Part shown: positions 2,265 to 44,912 of the stretch, one piece after another
How the letters are laid out: each line of letters begins with the position of its first letter
How positions within the stretch are numbered: position 1 is the first letter of the stretch
Sequence record: PQ900155.1
Direction: 5' to 3' (one strand)
DNA: 48,021 nt
Source: Escherichia phage vB_Eco_CWW26
Notes under the pieces: generated by a model
Database searches by the model: none
What the model was told of the DNA's origin: nothing
The model's input: the letters and a program-made list of their open reading frames with translations, nothing else
Position numbers and translations under genes: made by a program

Positions 2265-3674
2265 ATGGCTAAGGCTGCTAAAACAAACCTTCATCTCATG
2301 CCAGCTACAACAACCGACGGGCTGGTAAACGTCGTATCTGGTCTCGGAACGTGGAAAGCAAAACGCTCTCACAACGCGTTCCAGTATGCCGCGCTGTCCA
2401 ACTGGCAACAACTTGACGCAGCTTACCAGACTAACTGGCTGGCTCGTCAGATTGTGGAAATACCTGCCGAAGACATGTGTCGTGAGTGGCGCACTATCAA
2501 GTGCAAGGAAGCTGATGACATCCGTATCGAGGAGGACCGACTGATGATACCTGCCGTTGTACAGGAGGCTGTCACATGGGCGCGTCTGTACGGTGGTGGT
2601 GGTATTCTCATGCTGACCGGTCAGGACCTGTCAAAGCCGCTCGACGTGCGCCGTATTCGTAAAGGTGATTTGAAGCGTTGTATCGTGTTTGACCGTCATG
2701 ATATGTCACCTCTCACCATGAACACCTGGGACATTCTGGCACCTAATTACATGATGCCGGAGTATTACACCATTACTGGTGGTGGACAACAAATCCACTG
2801 GACCCATTTTGCGCGTTTCAATGGTAAGCGTTTGCCGCGTCGCCAGATGGTCCAGACTCAGGGATGGGGTGACAGTGAGTTACGCGTGTGCCTCGATGAC
2901 ATCATGGACATGGTTGCGTCGAAGGATGGCATCGCGGAACTGATGCAGGAAGCAAACGTTGATGTGGTCAAGCGTGAAGGGTTGTCCGATGAGTTAGCCA
3001 GTGACCAGGATGACGCGATTGTGTCGCGTTACACTCTGTTCAGTCAGATGAAGTCACTGGTGCAAATGGCCCTGCTGGACGGTGACGAGTCATACGAACG
3101 TAAGACGCTCGACCTGGGCGGCGTTGCACCGGTGCTTGAGACGTTCATGACGTGGATTAGTGGTGCAGCTGACATTCCTGTCACGCGCCTGTTCGGTACT
3201 TCAGCCAAAGGTTTAAACGCCACGGGTGAAGGGGACATGAACAACTATAACAACTCCATCCGTTCTAAACAGTTGACACAAGTTGACCCGGGGTTGCGCC
3301 AGCTTGATGAGGTGCTGGTACGTAGCGCACTGGGTTACTGGCCTGACGACTTCAACTATGTGTGGAATCCACTCGCACAGCCCAATGAGTTACAGATTGC
3401 ACAGGCCGCTAAAACACGCGCTGATAAGGACATGTTGTATCTCGCAGAAGGTGTTATCACCGTGTCACAGGTGCAGCGCAATCTGGAAGCCGCCGAAGAG
3501 TATCAGTTTGAAGACGGTCAGATTGATGAGCAGTCAGAGACTGAGAAAGAAATGTCCACTGTGCAACGCCCTGAGCCTGACGAGCAGACCACGGACGCAT
3601 TCTGGATACGTTACAATGGGTATGTGGCTGACGGACTGTCGCACGATGAGATAATGGCAAAACTGGCCCAGTAA
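2265..3674 (+). CDS. Portal protein (DUF1073/HI1409-like)
   Basis: 469 aa, directly after terL. Size and position are canonical for a portal, and the C-terminus is acidic. Confidence 0.8.
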   Translation: MAKAAKTNLHLMPATTTDGLVNVVSGLGTWKAKRSHNAFQYAALSNWQQLDAAYQTNWLARQIVEIPAEDMCREWRTIKCKEADDIRIEEDRLMIPAVVQEAVTWARLYGGGGILMLTGQDLSKPLDVRRIRKGDLKRCIVFDRHDMSPLTMNTWDILAPNYMMPEYYTITGGGQQIHWTHFARFNGKRLPRRQMVQTQGWGDSELRVCLDDIMDMVASKDGIAELMQEANVDVVKREGLSDELASDQDDAIVSRYTLFSQMKSLVQMALLDGDESYERKTLDLGGVAPVLETFMTWISGAADIPVTRLFGTSAKGLNATGEGDMNNYNNSIRSKQLTQVDPGLRQLDEVLVRSALGYWPDDFNYVWNPLAQPNELQIAQAAKTRADKDMLYLAEGVITVSQVQRNLEAAEEYQFEDGQIDEQSETEKEMSTVQRPEPDEQTTDAFWIRYNGYVADGLSHDEIMAKLAQ

Positions 3675-3688
3675 CGGGCCAGTTTGGT

Positions 3689-3811
3689 TTATTTCTGCTT
3701 CGTAAAGCCACCACAACCACACTTCGGACACATCGTGTAACTCACGCCTTTCTTTTCAACCCGGTCAAGATGGTGATGCTCATGCTTGCATGCTACGCAG
3801 ATGATAATCAT
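3689..3811 (-). CDS. Small zinc-ribbon protein (40 aa)
   Basis: Read by hand because it is below the track cutoff: MIIICVACKHEHHHLDRVEKKGVSYTMCPKCGCGGFTKQK. It has CxxC...CxxC pairs, and its ATG overlaps the upstream stop (TAATG at 3811). Confidence 0.45.
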   Translation of the reverse strand: MIIICVACKHEHHHLDRVEKKGVSYTMCPKCGCGGFTKQK

Positions 3812-14824: not shown

Positions 14825-14853
14825 AGTATATCAATGATTGACGTACTCGTCAA
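14825..14853 (-). promoter_or_regulatory. Leftward promoter TTGACG-N17-TATACT in perfect palindrome TTGACG-TACT-CGTCAA (14838..14853)
   Basis: The minus strand reads ttgacg agtacgtcaatcattga tatact. The right half-site is the first 10 bp of repeat copy B. Confidence 0.65.
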
Positions 14854-22519: not shown

Positions 22520-23166
22520 GTTTAATTAACCTTCTGGTAAAGCGCGGTCCACAGCTTGGGTCGCTTCAGTTCGATGCCGTCCTGTCTGATGACCTTGATG
22601 CCAGCGTGGATATCGTGCAGTACCCCATTGAGACAGGTACGCCAATTGCAGACCACATTATCTATCAGCCTATTCGTTACACGATGACAGGTGCAGTATC
22701 GAACAACCCGTTGAAAGTTAGTATCACCGATTTCACCGGGGCATTGACAAATCTTGTCGATGACAATCCGTTCATTGCAGCGGGTGCCGGTCTGTTCGCG
22801 GGGTGGTTGAGCGGCTCAAATGAAACTCGCTCCAGTACGACACTGAATACTTTGCTCGATTTCATGTACTCCGGTCAGGTATTCACAGTGGATACGGGCG
22901 AAATTACGCTGAACAATATGGTCATTCAGCGTATTGGGCGCTCTAAAGACCCGGAGAATGAGAACGGATTGATATTTGTTGCTGAACTACAGCAGATTGT
23001 CACGCTTGACCGCGTGGCGAACGGTTCACAACCGGCACAATATCAGCTGAACAGTAACGACGTTTCCAGCACGTCCATATCAGGACTGATTGAGCGTGGT
23101 TATATCAATGTGAAGACAGCTGCAACGAATGTTGCCGACCAGGTTACGACACTTTTGGATTTGTAA
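22516..23166 (+). CDS. Tail/baseplate protein (216 aa)
   Basis: Coupled ORF and the last gene before the non-coding gap. Confidence 0.5.
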   Translation: MSLINLLVKRGPQLGSLQFDAVLSDDLDASVDIVQYPIETGTPIADHIIYQPIRYTMTGAVSNNPLKVSITDFTGALTNLVDDNPFIAAGAGLFAGWLSGSNETRSSTTLNTLLDFMYSGQVFTVDTGEITLNNMVIQRIGRSKDPENENGLIFVAELQQIVTLDRVANGSQPAQYQLNSNDVSSTSISGLIERGYINVKTAATNVADQVTTLLDL

Positions 23167-23193
23167 AAAAAAAAAAGCCCCGTACTCCGGGGC
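23165..23193 (-). terminator. Strong intrinsic terminator oriented for the MINUS strand
   Basis: The minus strand reads gccccggagtacggggc followed by T12 (plus-strand A12 at 23165..23176). On the plus strand the hairpin is followed by aaacat, with no U tract. Confidence 0.8.
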
Positions 23194-23678
23194 AAACATA
23201 CTGAAGCGCAATGGAGAGAGAGTATGGTTTACAGTTGTGGCGGCCGGTGCTGATCTCCGGCTTGTATATGGACTACCCGTCGTCGCCATGGTGAGCCATT
23301 ACCTCACCATCTAGCTGATAAGTTAGCGCATCAGCCCGCGCATTCACCACAACTCTAAACCATCGTCGCAACTGTTGTTATGTTTCACAACATTACCCCA
23401 GTCACTTACGGCTTACCCGTCAGCAAGATTGGACCACCTCCTCGGGGGTTACAACAGGAAAGAGCATTCAGTTGTACCTGCCAGTTGTGCCACTAGGAAA
23501 CGCTTTCGCAGACCGTTAAGCTCTTTGCAAGTTCTTTAATGCTCTTACCTGTTGTATTGGTCGAACCGCCACGGTGACCAACCGCATTCGTGCATGCCTG
23601 GCTACACATTCCGGCTACCCGCTGGTGCGAAGGAATAGGACACCCCGGACCGCTAAGACACATGTGCTATATGCCTGT
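23166..23678 (-). ncRNA. Candidate large (~0.5 kb) structured non-coding RNA, antisense to the baseplate operon; class unknown
   Basis: No ORF of 60 aa or more respects the terminator. The unit has its own promoter (23685..23713) and a minus-oriented terminator. Two long-range helices are present: 23451..23468 pairs with 23538..23555 (17/18) and 23224..23242 pairs with 23345..23363 (17 Watson-Crick pairs plus one G-U that forms only in the minus sense). It also has at least 6 local hairpins and a GAAA tetraloop. Confidence 0.5.
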
Positions 23679-23684
23679 GAATAA

Positions 23685-23713
23685 ATAATTACATTGTTTG
23701 ACGTGATTGTCAA
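23685..23713 (-). promoter_or_regulatory. Leftward promoter TTGACA-N17-AATTAT (TGn extended -10) in palindrome TTGACG-TGAT-TGTCAA (23698..23713)
   Basis: The minus strand reads ttgaca atcacgtcaaacaatgt aattat. It is the only plausible start for the transcript ending at terminator 23165..23193. Confidence 0.5.
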
Positions 23714-23722
23714 TAGTATACT
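23694..23722 (+). promoter_or_regulatory. Rightward promoter TTGTTT-N17-TATACT for the baseplate genes, back-to-back with the leftward promoter
   Basis: -35 at 23694..23699 and -10 at 23717..23722. The palindrome sits in the spacer. AGGAGG RBS and ATG 23749 lie downstream. Confidence 0.45.
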
Positions 23723-23748
23723 TGACATTATTTTCACAGGAGGGCGAC

Positions 23749-24423
23749 ATGACCGACATTAACCAGCGCCGCTCGTTTTTACAGAACGTCACCAATGACA
23801 CGTTTTTCGAGAACATGAAGGACGTGTACACGTGCATCCCGGGTTACGTGCTGACGTTCGACCCGGACACACAGCGCGCACAAATTCAACTGGGAATCAC
23901 CCGGACTGATGATGTCGCTAAAACTACATTTGACCCGCCGCCCATCGTGGACGTTCCAGTAAGTTTCCCGGGCGATGACTTCGTACTGGAATTTGCCGTC
24001 AATCCGGGTTGTGAAGGTATGGTACATTTCAGTCAACGTTGCATTGATGGATGGAAGCAGACCGGCGGCATTGCTGCCAATCCAGTTAAACGCTTTCACC
24101 ACAAACAGGACGCAATGTTTGTACCTGGAATTCGTTCGCTCGATAACCTGATTGCAAGTTTTTCCAACGATGGGATACGTCTGCGTAATGCCGACGCGTC
24201 ACAGCACGTCTGGTTAAAGGGTGACGGTTCGTGCATAATGGCTAACGGGAACGGCAACGTTCAACTTCTTGCAAACGGCACGGTGAGTATCAATGGCGTG
24301 ACCATTGATAAAGACGGGAATATCACCGCTCTGAATTCTCTGGTGCTGGATGGCAAAGAACTCAACGGTCACACTCATGGCGGCGTTGCTTCCGGTGGTG
24401 CTAATACGGGGCCGAATAACTGA
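23749..24423 (+). CDS. Baseplate central spike / assembly protein V-like
   Basis: This is track ORF 23707..24423 trimmed to ATG 23749, which has an AGGAGG RBS. 224 aa with a beta-rich Gly/Asn C-terminus. It lies upstream of the W- and J-like genes. Confidence 0.6.
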   Translation: MTDINQRRSFLQNVTNDTFFENMKDVYTCIPGYVLTFDPDTQRAQIQLGITRTDDVAKTTFDPPPIVDVPVSFPGDDFVLEFAVNPGCEGMVHFSQRCIDGWKQTGGIAANPVKRFHHKQDAMFVPGIRSLDNLIASFSNDGIRLRNADASQHVWLKGDGSCIMANGNGNVQLLANGTVSINGVTIDKDGNITALNSLVLDGKELNGHTHGGVASGGANTGPNN

Positions 24424-35822: not shown

Positions 35823-35851
35823 ATACTACGTTGGTTTGACGAGTACGTCAA
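35823..35851 (-). promoter_or_regulatory. Leftward promoter TTGACG-N17-TAGTAT in perfect palindrome TTGACG-AGTA-CGTCAA (35836..35851)
   Basis: The minus strand reads ttgacg tactcgtcaaaccaacg tagtat. A 7-bp hairpin (35794..35812) follows in the SSB leader. Confidence 0.6.
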
Positions 35852-39315: not shown

Positions 39316-40955
39316 TACCAACACTCCGACCCTATCAGGAAAAACTGGTCAAAGACACGTACCAGCAGTGGGACGCCGGTAAGCAGTTTGTGGCAATGGT
39401 GAGCGCTACCGGCTCCGGCAAGTCAATGACCCTGACCGCTATTGTCGCAAAAGAGCGTGACCGGGGTCAGTATGTGCTGGTGCTGGCGCATCGTCAGGAG
39501 CTTATAACACAGTTGAGCGACACGATGGGACGTATGGAAATCCGCCACCAGGTTATCGCTGCTAATAAAGTGGTACGCTTCGCCGCTAAACAGTCGATGG
39601 AAAACCACGGGGTTAATTATGTTGACCCGAATGCGCGGGTAATGGTTGCGTCCGTACAATCAATGCGTGAGGCTAAAATTGCTGACCTGGCAAAGCTGGG
39701 TAATAAGCTGACCGTTGTGCAGGATGAATTCCACCATGCCACGAAGAAATCGAAGACCTGGGGAGGTGTGCTGACACCCCTGCTTAACGCTGGTGCACGC
39801 GGACTTGGACCGACCGCCACACCTTGTCGTGCGGATGGACAGGGTTTATCACGCGAGACGGACGGTTACGCGGATGTGATTGTTGAAGGTCCGTCAATGC
39901 GCTGGCTTATCGACAACGGATATCTTAGTCAGTACAAAATTTACTGCCCGCCGACCGACCTACAACTGGATAACGTGGAAACCAGTAAAACCACGGGGGA
40001 CTATAAAGAGAAGGAACTCAAAGCGGAGATTGGGCGTTCACATATCGTCGGCGACATTGTGAGTCACTATCTCAAAATCTGCCCGGGTAAACGCGGCATC
40101 ACCTTTACCGTCGGCGTGGATACGGCAGAGGAAGTAGCGGAAGAATATCGTAAGCGTGGTGTACCAGCAATTGCATTGTCCGGGCGCAATGCAGATGAAG
40201 AACGTGTACAGGCTATCCGTGATTTGAAGTCTGGAAAGATTTTGCAAATTGTTAATGATTCGTTAATAGGGGAAGGAGTGGACATTCCCGCAGTGGAAGT
40301 AGTGTCTTTCGCCAGACCGACACAGAGTTATGCACTTTATGCACAAATGTTCGGTCGTGCGCTGCGTCCGTTCGAGGGAAAATCACACGCTATCATTATC
40401 GACGCAGTATCAAACGTCATGCGCCACGGTTTACCGGATGCACCGCGTGAGTGGAGTCTTGACCGTCGGGAGCGTCGCACGGGTAAAAGTGAACCATCGA
40501 CGGTGCGCGTGTGTACAGCTTGCGCGGCAGTGTATGAGCGGTTCCGTGACGCATGTCCGGACTGCGGTGAGCCTGTACCTAAACCGGCGCAACGTAGTGG
40601 TCCAGAGTTTGTAGACGGTGACCTTTACGAGCTTGACCCGGACGTACTGGCGCAGATGCGTAATGAGGTTGTGGGGGCACGTGAGACACCCGAGGCAATG
40701 CGTGACAGACTGACCGCACAACATGCGCCGCCTGCTGGAGTAATGGCTAACGTCAAACGTCAGAGAGAAAGGCTTGACGCGCTCGTCAAATTGGACCTAA
40801 AATTAGCGGAGTGGGCCGGGTATCGTCGTGCGGAAGGTCTGAGCGACAATGAAATATTTCGCAAGTTTTACCTGACGTATGGCGTGTCATGGCTGGAGGC
40901 GCAGGCGCTCAAATCGGCTGATGCGGATAAATTAAGAGAGAGGATTGGGTTATGA
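39312..40955 (+). CDS. SF2 (DEAD/DEAH, ResIII-type) DNA helicase with zinc ribbon
   Basis: 547 aa. Walker A ATGSGKS, Walker B DEFHH, helicase-C QMFGRALR, and CTAC...CPDC. Confidence 0.85.
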   Translation: MIPTLRPYQEKLVKDTYQQWDAGKQFVAMVSATGSGKSMTLTAIVAKERDRGQYVLVLAHRQELITQLSDTMGRMEIRHQVIAANKVVRFAAKQSMENHGVNYVDPNARVMVASVQSMREAKIADLAKLGNKLTVVQDEFHHATKKSKTWGGVLTPLLNAGARGLGPTATPCRADGQGLSRETDGYADVIVEGPSMRWLIDNGYLSQYKIYCPPTDLQLDNVETSKTTGDYKEKELKAEIGRSHIVGDIVSHYLKICPGKRGITFTVGVDTAEEVAEEYRKRGVPAIALSGRNADEERVQAIRDLKSGKILQIVNDSLIGEGVDIPAVEVVSFARPTQSYALYAQMFGRALRPFEGKSHAIIIDAVSNVMRHGLPDAPREWSLDRRERRTGKSEPSTVRVCTACAAVYERFRDACPDCGEPVPKPAQRSGPEFVDGDLYELDPDVLAQMRNEVVGARETPEAMRDRLTAQHAPPAGVMANVKRQRERLDALVKLDLKLAEWAGYRRAEGLSDNEIFRKFYLTYGVSWLEAQALKSADADKLRERIGL

Positions 40956-44744: not shown

Positions 44745-44774
44745 GTTGACGAGTTCGTCAATGGGGAGTATAGT
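44745..44774 (+). promoter_or_regulatory. Rightward promoter TTGACG-N18-TATAGT in perfect palindrome TTGACG-AGTT-CGTCAA (44745..44760)
   Basis: ttgacg agttcgtcaaatggggag tatagt. It heads a block of small genes. Confidence 0.65.
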
Positions 44775-44804: not shown

Positions 44805-44912
44805 ATGAGCAAGAAAACACAATTTTCAGTAAGCAACTACCATAACGAGCACGTCATGCGCTGGCACTGGCAGAAACTCAAAGAGCGCTACCTGGCAACG
44901 CAGGGTAAATAA
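44805..44912 (+). CDS. Hypothetical small protein (35 aa)
   Basis: Read by hand: MSKKTQFSVSNYHNEHVMRWHWQKLKERYLATQGK. GAGAGG RBS 8 nt upstream. Confidence 0.35.
   Translation: MSKKTQFSVSNYHNEHVMRWHWQKLKERYLATQGK

Follow-up and report, generated by a model that had tools for sequence, protein, structure and literature searches.

A leftward non-coding RNA unit of exchangeable modules, one of them a remodelled tRNA, between two tail genes of a Jedunavirus

We examined positions 23165-23713 of the genome of Escherichia phage vB_Eco_CWW26 (PQ900155.1), a Jedunavirus referred to below as ZCEC13. The window was the whole genome of 48,021 bp, and gp names are those of RefSeq. The stretch from 23167 to 23748, which separates the gene for the Dit-like tail protein gp44 (stop at 23166) from the baseplate spike gene (start at 23749), holds no credible open reading frame (ORF), the longest lying wholly within it being 56 amino acids (aa). 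On the minus strand it carries a sigma-70-type promoter, with -35 TTGACA at 23713-23708, a 17-nt spacer that includes TG, and -10 AATTAT at 23690-23685, and at its far end a hairpin followed by U12, which works as an intrinsic terminator on this strand only (Table 1). The promoter block TATACTATTGACAnTCACGTCAAACAATGTAATTATT is kept in all Jedunavirus-like loci, and promoter and terminator are both kept in every related Jedunavirus locus examined. We infer a primary transcript of about 510 nt, read leftward by the host RNA polymerase from a start near 23678-23676. The minimum free energy (MFE) fold of the minus strand reached -189.6 kcal/mol (z -3.5), against -170 kcal/mol (z -3.05) for the plus strand, and two long helices were present in it. 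In helix 1 (23451-23468 with 23538-23555), 17 of the 18 positions are paired whichever strand is read. Of the 19 positions of helix 2 (23224-23242 with 23345-23363), 18 pair on the minus strand, counting one G-U, and 17 on the plus strand. An initial annotation of this DNA had described the ORF-free gap, the promoter with its TG, the minus-strand terminator, the 17 of 18 pairs of helix 1 and the position of helix 2 that is G-U on the minus strand and C-A on the plus strand, and all of these were borne out. Its wider claim, that the gap yields a structured, leftward, non-coding RNA, is supported by the G-U and by invariant U-G pairs, by the orientation of promoter and terminator, and by the strand that related elements share with tRNA genes (20 of 20 cases), and we regard the identity and strand of the unit as established.

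Table 1. Coordinates of the leftward unit and its parts in ZCEC13
Feature	Coordinates	Strand	Description or basis
Sigma-70-type promoter	23685-23713	-	10 of 12 consensus positions plus TG (consensus scan)
Operator-like palindrome TTGACGTGATTGTCAA	23698-23713		Overlaps the -35 hexamer
Module C, 5'-terminal structured RNA	23557-23676	-	In all Jedunavirus loci
Module B	23451-23555	-	18-position closing stem ACAACAGGUAAGAGCAUU / AAUGCUCUUUCCUGUUGU, 17 of 18 paired
Module X, CCCC..GGGG-closed	23364-23450	-	Hairpin GACGGGUAAGCCGUAAGU at 23421-23404
Module A cloverleaf	23235-23352	-	Core patterns, covariation, tRNA-Met in the same slot
Module A, P1/acceptor-like stem	23352-23345 with 23242-23235	-	Followed by linker AAU
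Module A, D-like arm GCGC-GGGCUGAU-GCGC	23341-23326	-	
Module A, insert	23325-23262	-	
16S helix 11 copy CUUAUCAGCUAGAUGGUGAGGUAAUGGCUCACCAUGGCGACGACGGG	23276-23322	-	Rfam SSU rRNA local match
Module A, T-like arm GCCGG-AGAUCAGCA-CCGGC	23261-23243	-	
Outer stem, 3' strand CUGUAAACC	23226-23234	-	5' strand GGUUUAGAG at 23353-23361
Intrinsic terminator GCCCCG-GAGUA-CGGGGC + U12	23165-23193	-	Terminator scan, sequence inspection, kept in relatives

The interval had at first been taken for an orphan, and for one large RNA of about 0.5 kb; neither description survived comparison with relatives. We compared 38 loci that encode relatives of the spike protein and found that the breakpoints between them fall at fixed positions, which are the borders of modules. 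The promoter block, the first ~120 nt of the transcript (module C, 23676-23557) and the terminator region occur in all relatives. The segment 23235-23541 is missing altogether from many Jedunaviruses, and other relatives carry alternative versions of modules B (23555-23451), X (23450-23364) and A (23352-23235). Moreover, BLAST searches of phages and E. coli genomes found pieces of the interval of ~100-140 nt singly in unrelated phages, none of them annotated. They lay behind cI-like repressors, in the pR'-tR' leader of HK620, beside tRNA genes and in epsilon15. Every module proved to have relatives in many unrelated phages and prophages, and modules were missing, swapped or found alone elsewhere. 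These sequence comparisons demonstrate that the unit is a mosaic of four separable modules, in the order C-B-X-A, which are gained and lost among Jedunaviruses, and the transcript is a composite, probably a processed precursor. The two long-range helices are the closing stems of the independent modules B and A rather than parts of one large architecture, and their conserved outer part accounts for the recurring ACAAC(T/A)G motif. The initial view of a single novel RNA of ~0.5 kb, held in one tertiary architecture by its long-range helices, agrees with a whole interval that folds better than shuffled sequence (z -3.5) and with the prediction of both helices. We nevertheless consider it highly improbable, as each long helix closes a module that occurs alone elsewhere, and in close relatives the promoter, module C and the terminator persist although two or three of the four modules are absent. 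Modules can also be nested: module A lies within the hairpin of the outer stem GGUUUAGAG/CUGUAAACC, and in short-form Jedunaviruses such as L013 (L-numbers label compared loci or contigs) the outer stem closes a small loop and the cloverleaf is absent.

Module A reads, on the minus strand, UUGUGGUG AAU GCGC-GGGCUGAU-GCGC, then the insert, then GCCGG-AGAUCAGCA-CCGGC CGCCACAA. The first and last elements pair with one another through P1, with one U-G, enclosing two hairpins (P2 and P3) whose loops, GCUGAU and AUCAGC, are complementary and kiss. The gctgat/atcagc pairing, initially described as a local hairpin, is thus a loop-loop contact between two hairpins. We defined the family by the pattern 5'-N7-G AAU GCGC-AGGCUGAU-GCGC - insert - GCCGG-AGAUCAGCA-CCGGC C-N7', that is, by a 5' core GAAUGCGCNGGCUGAUGCGC and a 3' core GCCGGAGAUCAGCACCGGCC with complementary N7 flanks and complementary loops; ZCEC13 carries the cores GAATGCGCGGGCTGATGCGC and GCCGGAGATCAGCACCGGCC on its minus strand. 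We parsed 156-185 distinct elements of 78-320 nt and measured covariation on 135 distinct cores. Standard pairs filled 97.2% of the pair cells, against 84.7% after shuffling, a percentage that the choice of elements inflates for P1-P3, as discussed below. Double changes were seen at 17 of the 23 pairs, and the covariation score was 0.331 against 0.093, with none of 500 shuffles as high; slid registers scored 0.10 or less. Specifically, compensatory double changes affect 7 of the 8 pairs of P1, all 4 of P2 and 4 of the 5 of P3. P1 is freely variable in sequence yet paired, and P2 and P3 are almost invariant, their few compensatory exceptions being AUGC/GCAU, GCUC/GAGC, GCAGG/CCUGC and GCCGA/UCGGC. 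The kiss covaries as well: two independent variants alter both loops together, AGGUCGAU with AGUUCGACA and AGUGGUGAU with GAUCACCU.

The dimensions of this element are those of a tRNA. Alignment columns 2-8 pair with 55-61 in ~100% of sequences. The outermost pair of P1 forms in 69% and is unpaired in 31%, so the acceptor-like stem is one of 7 bp followed by an A-rich, discriminator-like position. The tail after this position is C-rich, with CC enriched, and 24 of the 156 elements encode NCCA, compared with ~2.4 expected from (1/4)^3; in ZCEC13 the stem is followed by CUGUAAACC. P2 has 4 bp and an 8-nt loop, as in a D arm, and P3, like a T arm, has 5 bp and abuts the 3' strand of P1. The linker is 3 nt long where canonical tRNA has 2, and minimal members measure 78-81 nt. 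A tRNA gene lies within 500 nt of 20 of 169 elements, sometimes only 5-8 nt away, and is on the same strand in all 20. In L034, a more distant Jedunavirus-like contig, a genuine tRNA-Met occupies the slot of module A, and its acceptor UUGUGGUG/CACCACAA has the sequence of the common P1. L005 and L032 carry at this place a tRNA-like RNA whose D and T arms are canonical and whose insert measures ~75 nt. The tRNA dimensions, the shared orientation with tRNA genes and the tRNA-Met found in the same slot with the same acceptor together establish that the module A family is a remodelled tRNA. Its elbow is a Watson-Crick loop-loop kiss of 4-6 bp, which replaces the D/T-loop elbow, and, unlike a canonical tRNA, it has no anticodon arm, no GTPsiC T-loop and no canonical D-loop. 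The Rfam tRNA model and ARAGORN are blind to it: ARAGORN called no tRNA in the window, and left the minimal 78-nt cloverleaf uncalled even at a low threshold with introns allowed; neither ARAGORN nor Rfam found a tmRNA in the window. The L034 tRNA-Met(CAU) itself (2643-2720, minus strand) is unusual for a tRNA-Met in its CCC(CA) tail, in which CCA is not in register; ARAGORN gave it an acceptor of 8 bp, which leader-trailer pairing could extend to 9 bp.

We then scanned for the cloverleaf cores more widely. At least 120 IMG/VR contigs carry the 5' core. When one genome per species was scanned with the 3' core, genuine elements turned up in many gamma- and betaproteobacteria and in some alphaproteobacteria; matches outside the Proteobacteria were rejected as chance hits in GC-rich coding genes. 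CRISPR spacers identical to the 3' core (GCCGGAGATCAGCACCGGCC with flanks) occur in L172 (Marinospirillum alkaliphilum, ~3700-3735) and L258; hosts thus target the conserved phage element. At 42 of 156 cloverleaf loci a CI-like repressor gene (HTH_3 + Peptidase_S24) lies 0.1-2.8 kb upstream on the same strand. Further recurrent neighbours are antiterminator Q upstream, lysozyme and Rz downstream, and DUF2303. Both sites, behind cI and behind Q, are classic places for morons in temperate phages, and in lambda biology both are transcribed in lysogens. In L085, positions 3205-3282 of the minus strand match the Rfam family Proteo-phage-1 (RF03044, 76.8 bits) ~130 nt upstream of a cloverleaf on the same strand, which suggests that non-coding RNA (ncRNA) islands mix several motif families.

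Elements of this kind could also be decaying tRNA genes or junk, or mobile palindromes acting at the DNA level, comparable to miniature inverted-repeat transposable elements (MITE) or enterobacterial repetitive intergenic consensus (ERIC) repeats, without any RNA function. Mosaic gain and loss, breakpoints at stem borders, nesting in hairpin loops and palindromic stems would fit such an origin, as would a tRNA ancestry that tRNA detection misses. The terminal stem, however, covaries, whereas transposon ends would keep their sequence. Compensatory changes between two loops have no meaning at the DNA level, the invariant U-G pairs fix the strand, orientation agrees with that of tRNA genes in 20 of 20 cases, and the arms are nearly identical in more than 150 distinct elements from alpha-, beta- and gammaproteobacterial prophages. 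We therefore consider this explanation distinctly improbable, and a MITE/ERIC-like repeat as such was ruled out on the covarying terminal stem and the strong strand bias. The modules are under selection as RNA.

In place of the anticodon arm the family carries an insert of 24-175 nt that differs widely between members. The commonest insert, of 141 nt, had no match among 50,697 phage records. Canonical tRNA T-arm/T-loop motifs were seen inside four inserts (L031, L137, L185 and L085), and the insert of L051 (minus strand, element start index 833) contains a hammerhead ribozyme core, CUGAUGAGGCC..GGCCGAAAC..GUAGUC. In ZCEC13 most of the insert is a near-exact copy of 16S rRNA helix 11. Aligned to positions 172-218 of the Rfam small-subunit (SSU) rRNA model, it scored 33.4 bits (E 1.6e-7, posterior 1.00 throughout) and keeps all conserved positions, the internal loop and the GNRA-like UAAY loop. 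It shares 33 of 40 positions with E. coli 16S 243-282, and where the stem differs the changes are compensatory (A-U/U-A). When the whole interval was compared with 16S, only helix 11 was significant; a weak collinear match to 92-132 and the match to the 3' end were not. An exact 21-mer of the copy, TGGTGAGGTAATGGCTCACCA, occurs in 93 IMG/VR viral contigs on at least two scaffolds: the cloverleaf in ~9 distinct sequences and a three-way junction in ~50. Inspection of 65 distinct full-flank sequences found none whose flanks resemble a continuation of 16S. The conserved unit includes the internal loop and shows compensatory changes between phages, and in Yersinia phage vB_YenM_30.14 the three-way-junction scaffold has covarying stems. 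The recurrence of the insert on unrelated scaffolds indicates that it is under selection. The protein uS17 "interacts with 16S helix 11" (PMC4604426). No ribosomal-protein (r-protein) gene lies near the ZCEC13 copy, which sits in a non-coding unit.

The three-way junction has the form UGCUUUGG-GCUGGC-[helix 11]-[small hairpin]-GCCAGC-CCAAAGCA, with a hairpin CCCGCAUCAGCGGG and then the Shine-Dalgarno sequences of various genes behind it. The junction was seen in L407-L494 (e.g. L407 3900-4150 and L422 4560-4800) and in the Yersinia phage (L046, 2440-2620), in 5' untranslated regions (UTRs), in lambdoid early-left operons and downstream of CI-like repressors.

Module C, at the 5' end of the transcript, begins with the H1 hairpin (23676-23656, loop AGCAC), continues with a core of GCGGUCCGG (23653-23645) and GGGUAGCCGGAAUGUG (23620-23605) around a variable hairpin, and ends in a 3' hairpin UUGGUC..GACCAA (23581-23557). 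We defined its family by an H1 loop of the GGCAC type together with the GCGGUCCGG ... GGGUAGCCGGAAUGUG core that encloses a variable hairpin, a combination that ZCEC13 has at 23676-23656 and 23653-23605. The core occurs in at least 120 IMG/VR contigs, and unannotated relatives were found in 470 of 5,426 complete E. coli genomes as well as in mEp390 and epsilon15-like podoviruses. In an alignment of 25 diverse members (A2), 95.8% of the pair cells were paired against 86.3% after shuffling, and the covariation score was 0.302 against 0.129, with 0 of 500 shuffles as high; the 5', variable and 3' hairpins were all supported. The strand of module C is fixed by its invariant U-G pairs. In Jedunavirus and some lambdoid loci the module begins a few nucleotides past a -10-like box, and its position there makes it the 5' end of the primary transcript. 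Among 114 distinct module C segments, a tRNA lies within 650 nt downstream in 13, always on the same strand, and a cloverleaf in 18. An ST131 prophage carries promoter, module C, module B, a degenerate tRNA-like element and a terminator in a 1-kb gap right after its repressor gene.

RefSeq annotates three tiny 'hypothetical proteins' in the gap, all of them over structured RNA modules: gp45 (23273-23371, minus strand, 32 aa), gp46 (23516-23587, minus strand, 23 aa) and gp47 (23590-23688, plus strand, 32 aa). That the gap encodes such small proteins, or is a decayed gene, is barely credible beyond the fact of these three annotations. The ORFs cross module borders and variable inserts that differ between relatives by replacement, they are not kept as ORFs in relatives, and no ORF in the gap exceeds 56 aa. 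Moreover, the homologues, to which the initial annotation had looked for either compensatory or codon-like substitutions, show compensatory changes in the stems, both in the cloverleaf cores and in the module C alignment. We conclude that gp45, gp46 and gp47 are probably annotation artefacts, and mEp390_036 and the coding sequence annotated over the helix-11 element of the Yersinia phage may be similar cases.

Module B has a variable interior, which includes a tetraloop hairpin GCGAAAGC, and is 94% identical to segments of HK620/HK633 and of E. coli prophages that lie between pR'/qut and tR'. In HK620, module B and an A-type cloverleaf stand between the annotated pR'/qut and tR', inside the short late-operon leader RNA. 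The inner stem of the module covaries between phages (AAUGGCACU/AGUGCCAUU, GUGAGCGUAUU/AAUACGCUCAC and AAGGGUGUU/AAUACCCUU). Module X was found in long-form Jedunaviruses and in L104, L086 and L152, and in comparison with L086 shows a compensatory change (ACGG/CCGU and ACAG/CUGU). Every version of module X, including those of L005, L032, L034 and L086, contains a Shine-Dalgarno-like GGAGGUG(A/G)U, which could be a ribosome-binding or stabiliser element. In ZCEC13 this stretch, GAGGAGGUGGUCCAA (23443-23429), is complementary to the 3' end of 16S rRNA at 13 of 14 positions, a match that is not significant alone (E 0.99). A possible mini-ORF, UUG CUG ACG GGU AAG CCG UAA, begins 10 nt past it.

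The position of the unit invites another explanation, that it regulates or insulates the late operon by antisense or convergent transcription, through a duplex or a collision with rightward transcription that runs on past gp44 into the spike gene. The unit is antisense to the late genes on either side, gp44 has no terminator behind it on the plus strand, and ZCEC13 has several other leftward islands. Epsilon15 has a comparable island (L404, 2559-2947), antisense and ORF-free, that contains a relative of module C and lies between the terminase gene and gp3, on the side of the portal genes; its depositors marked binding sites for a repressor and for IHF, a predicted RNase III site and a terminator, a set that parallels the ZCEC13 island. 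In lambdoid phages, however, the same modules run in the direction of their surroundings, both after cI and within the pR' leader, and antisense action would not need structure-preserving covariation. A search for antisense targets elsewhere in the phage genome found no complementarity above chance except promoter and terminator look-alikes. We judge this explanation improbable.

Our interpretation of 23165-23713, favoured with modest confidence, is that it is a leftward ncRNA operon whose four independently folding modules belong to uncatalogued families widespread in proteobacterial phages and prophages, with tRNA-like processing and a mimic of the uS17 site. We are highly confident of the structural and evolutionary classification of the unit. 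The mechanism, namely processing combined with protein capture through helix 11, is a tentative proposal. According to this proposal, the tRNA-maturation machinery would cut the precursor as it cuts tRNA arrays, RNase P acting 5' of the acceptor-like stem and RNase E or exonucleases 3' of it, and stable tRNA-sized RNAs would be released. The tRNA-like scaffold would serve processing, folding and stability, and would display the insert. The helix-11 insert would mimic a ribosomal-protein binding site, most likely that of uS17, the primary binder of helix 11, and would capture or sense uS17 or another helix-11-binding factor. The initial annotation had guessed at a regulatory, decoy or anti-defence role, and the helix-11 copy in module A lends some weight to the idea of a decoy.

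The main rival to this interpretation, and one that we still think unlikely, is that the tRNA-like module serves solely as a cis-acting processing or stability signal ('tRNA punctuation', read by RNase P and RNase Z/E), with the insert as a passenger; the other rivals are less likely. It would explain why conservation is confined to what RNase P reads (acceptor, T-like arm and elbow) and the equivalent of the anticodon arm is hypervariable, and why elements stand at the joints of transcription units, separating cI from early genes and Q from lysis genes, and next to tRNAs. Against it, the same helix-11 copy, internal loop included, recurs with compensatory changes in 93 viral contigs and on two or more unrelated scaffolds, a pattern that speaks for selection on the insert, and in ZCEC13 the module stands at the 3' end, ~40 nt before the terminator, with nothing downstream to release.

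Several observations weigh against the ncRNA-operon interpretation itself. The 168 elements whose inserts were grouped fell into 129 sequence clusters, a diversity that could mean the insert is unconstrained rather than functional. The pairing percentages of P1-P3 are inflated since pairing was part of the selection filter, to which the kiss was not subject. NCCA is encoded in 15% of the elements only, and ARAGORN does not call module A elements tRNAs. The T-like loop (AGAUCAGCA) has no GTPsiC motif and the D-like loop no canonical features, and recognition by RNase P or the CCA-adding enzyme is consequently not assured. Helix 7, which also contacts uS17 in the 30S structure, is not copied in the insert, and the link to uS17 consists of one literature statement and sequence mimicry.

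A bolder version of the ncRNA-operon interpretation, which we think quite unlikely, would credit proteobacterial phages at large with an 'RNA display' platform: a tRNA-derived kissing-elbow scaffold, processed by the tRNA machinery of the host, whose hypervariable arm carries decoys or sensors for host factors. The helix-11 copies on both scaffolds would then be the first phage-encoded uS17 decoys or sensors, with modules C, B and X included in the same scheme. If this were true, phages and prophages would read or manipulate ribosome assembly by means of a ribosome-directed ncRNA operon, in which module X would contribute its extended anti-anti-Shine-Dalgarno sequence.

Searches of existing catalogues agree with the initial statement that the RNA belongs to no known class. 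Rfam 15 gave no match at gathering threshold in the window, and at E<=10 the region 23000-23900 yielded the helix-11 SSU local match and chance matches only. In 23 related loci Rfam 15 matched only tRNAs, Proteo-phage-1 and SraC/SdsR; the cloverleaf, module C, the helix-11 junction, the L005-type tRNA-like RNA and the HK620 leader all fell short of any Rfam 15 gathering score. The core sequences were not found in the literature searched. The families thus appear to be uncatalogued, the nearest known systems being tRNAs, YrlA-type Y RNAs, RNase P-processed phage immunity RNAs and r-protein leader mimics. YrlA RNAs have a tRNA-like domain, and some are RNase P substrates (Chen et al. 2014, PMC4201824). 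Like module A, they are ncRNAs of bacteria and phages that derive from tRNA and have kept one part of the cloverleaf while exchanging another for a functional module. Unlike it, YrlA keeps canonical D and T arms in permuted order, ends in a Ro-binding stem with the acceptor capped, and lies beside rsr/Ro60, whereas module A ends at the acceptor and has non-canonical kissing arms. A YrlA or other bacterial Y RNA was ruled out by topology, by the arms, by the absence of an Rfam match, and by the absence of rsr/Ro60 among the top recurrent neighbours.

The C4 RNA of P1/P7 and the CI RNA of P4 are small RNase P-processed phage RNAs of tRNA-like shape, encoded in or near immunity regions. They consist of a conserved scaffold with specificity loops, are excised from longer transcripts, and their loops pair in antisense within their own operon. 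The conserved loops of module A pair instead with each other, and the interval gave no C4 RNA match in Rfam at E<=10. Autoregulatory leaders of r-protein operons also copy a protein-binding helix of rRNA outside the ribosome, as helix 11, the uS17 site, is copied here, and the second helix-11 scaffold resembles them in its place in 5' UTRs just upstream of Shine-Dalgarno sequences. They differ in that the present copies are phage-encoded and outside any r-protein operon, and that the ZCEC13 copy has no downstream gene; uS17 is not known to be an autoregulator in E. coli. AgvB and AsxR are Hfq-binding small RNAs of 51-60 nt with a variable 5' end of 14-18 nt (Tree et al. 2014, PMC4104026). They share with the present families a place at moron sites downstream of pR' in lambdoid prophages and a combination of conserved and variable parts, but this anti-sRNA class was ruled out, as it has no cloverleaf and differs in size, sequence and architecture. 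None of the families described here is present in prophage Sp5 of Sakai (E. coli O157), and for that reason the Sakai data from Hfq crosslinking and analysis of cDNA (Hfq-CRAC) could not be used as evidence of expression.

If our interpretation is right, this one short gap reveals three or more families of structured phage RNA that are abundant yet uncatalogued (the cloverleaf, module C and the helix-11 three-way junction), which lie unannotated in hundreds of E. coli genomes at moron sites after cI and Q. The cloverleaf would be a tRNA rebuilt, its elbow turned into a designed-looking loop-loop helix and its anticodon arm into a holder for arbitrary cargo, and as such bears on RNA evolution, on substrate recognition by RNase P and on the engineering of RNA scaffolds. 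The recurrent, structure-preserving copy of helix 11 leads to a concrete and cheaply tested hypothesis, that phages bind or sense uS17. For annotation the lesson is one of caution, as tiny 'hypothetical proteins' in gaps of this kind are probably artefacts.

The initial annotation had also spoken of an operator along with the promoter. The promoter does overlap an operator-like palindrome that recurs in the genome: TTGACG-N4-CGTCAA sites occur five times (14838-14853, 23698-23713, 35836-35851, 40774-40789 and 44746-44761), compared with 0.69 expected. When the site coordinates were read against the gene table, those at 35836 and 44746 lay between real genes, the one at 14838 over the annotated 5' end of gp30, and the one at 40774 inside the helicase gene. 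The palindrome is a candidate operator for a phage regulator, for example the TetR-like gp78 or the winged helix-turn-helix protein gp86. The ncRNA unit is one of several leftward islands among the rightward structural genes of ZCEC13. In Klebsiella phage BUCT_49532 (MZ374361, 20980-22103) and in RCIP0033 an HNH endonuclease gene is inserted in the homologous intergenic region, which indicates that the site is permissive for the insertion of mobile genes. Finally, gp81 (35 aa, 44805-44912) bears the RefSeq name 'anticodon nuclease activator family protein' (Stp-like) and may bear on host defence directed at tRNA, in a phage with a tRNA-like RNA of its own.

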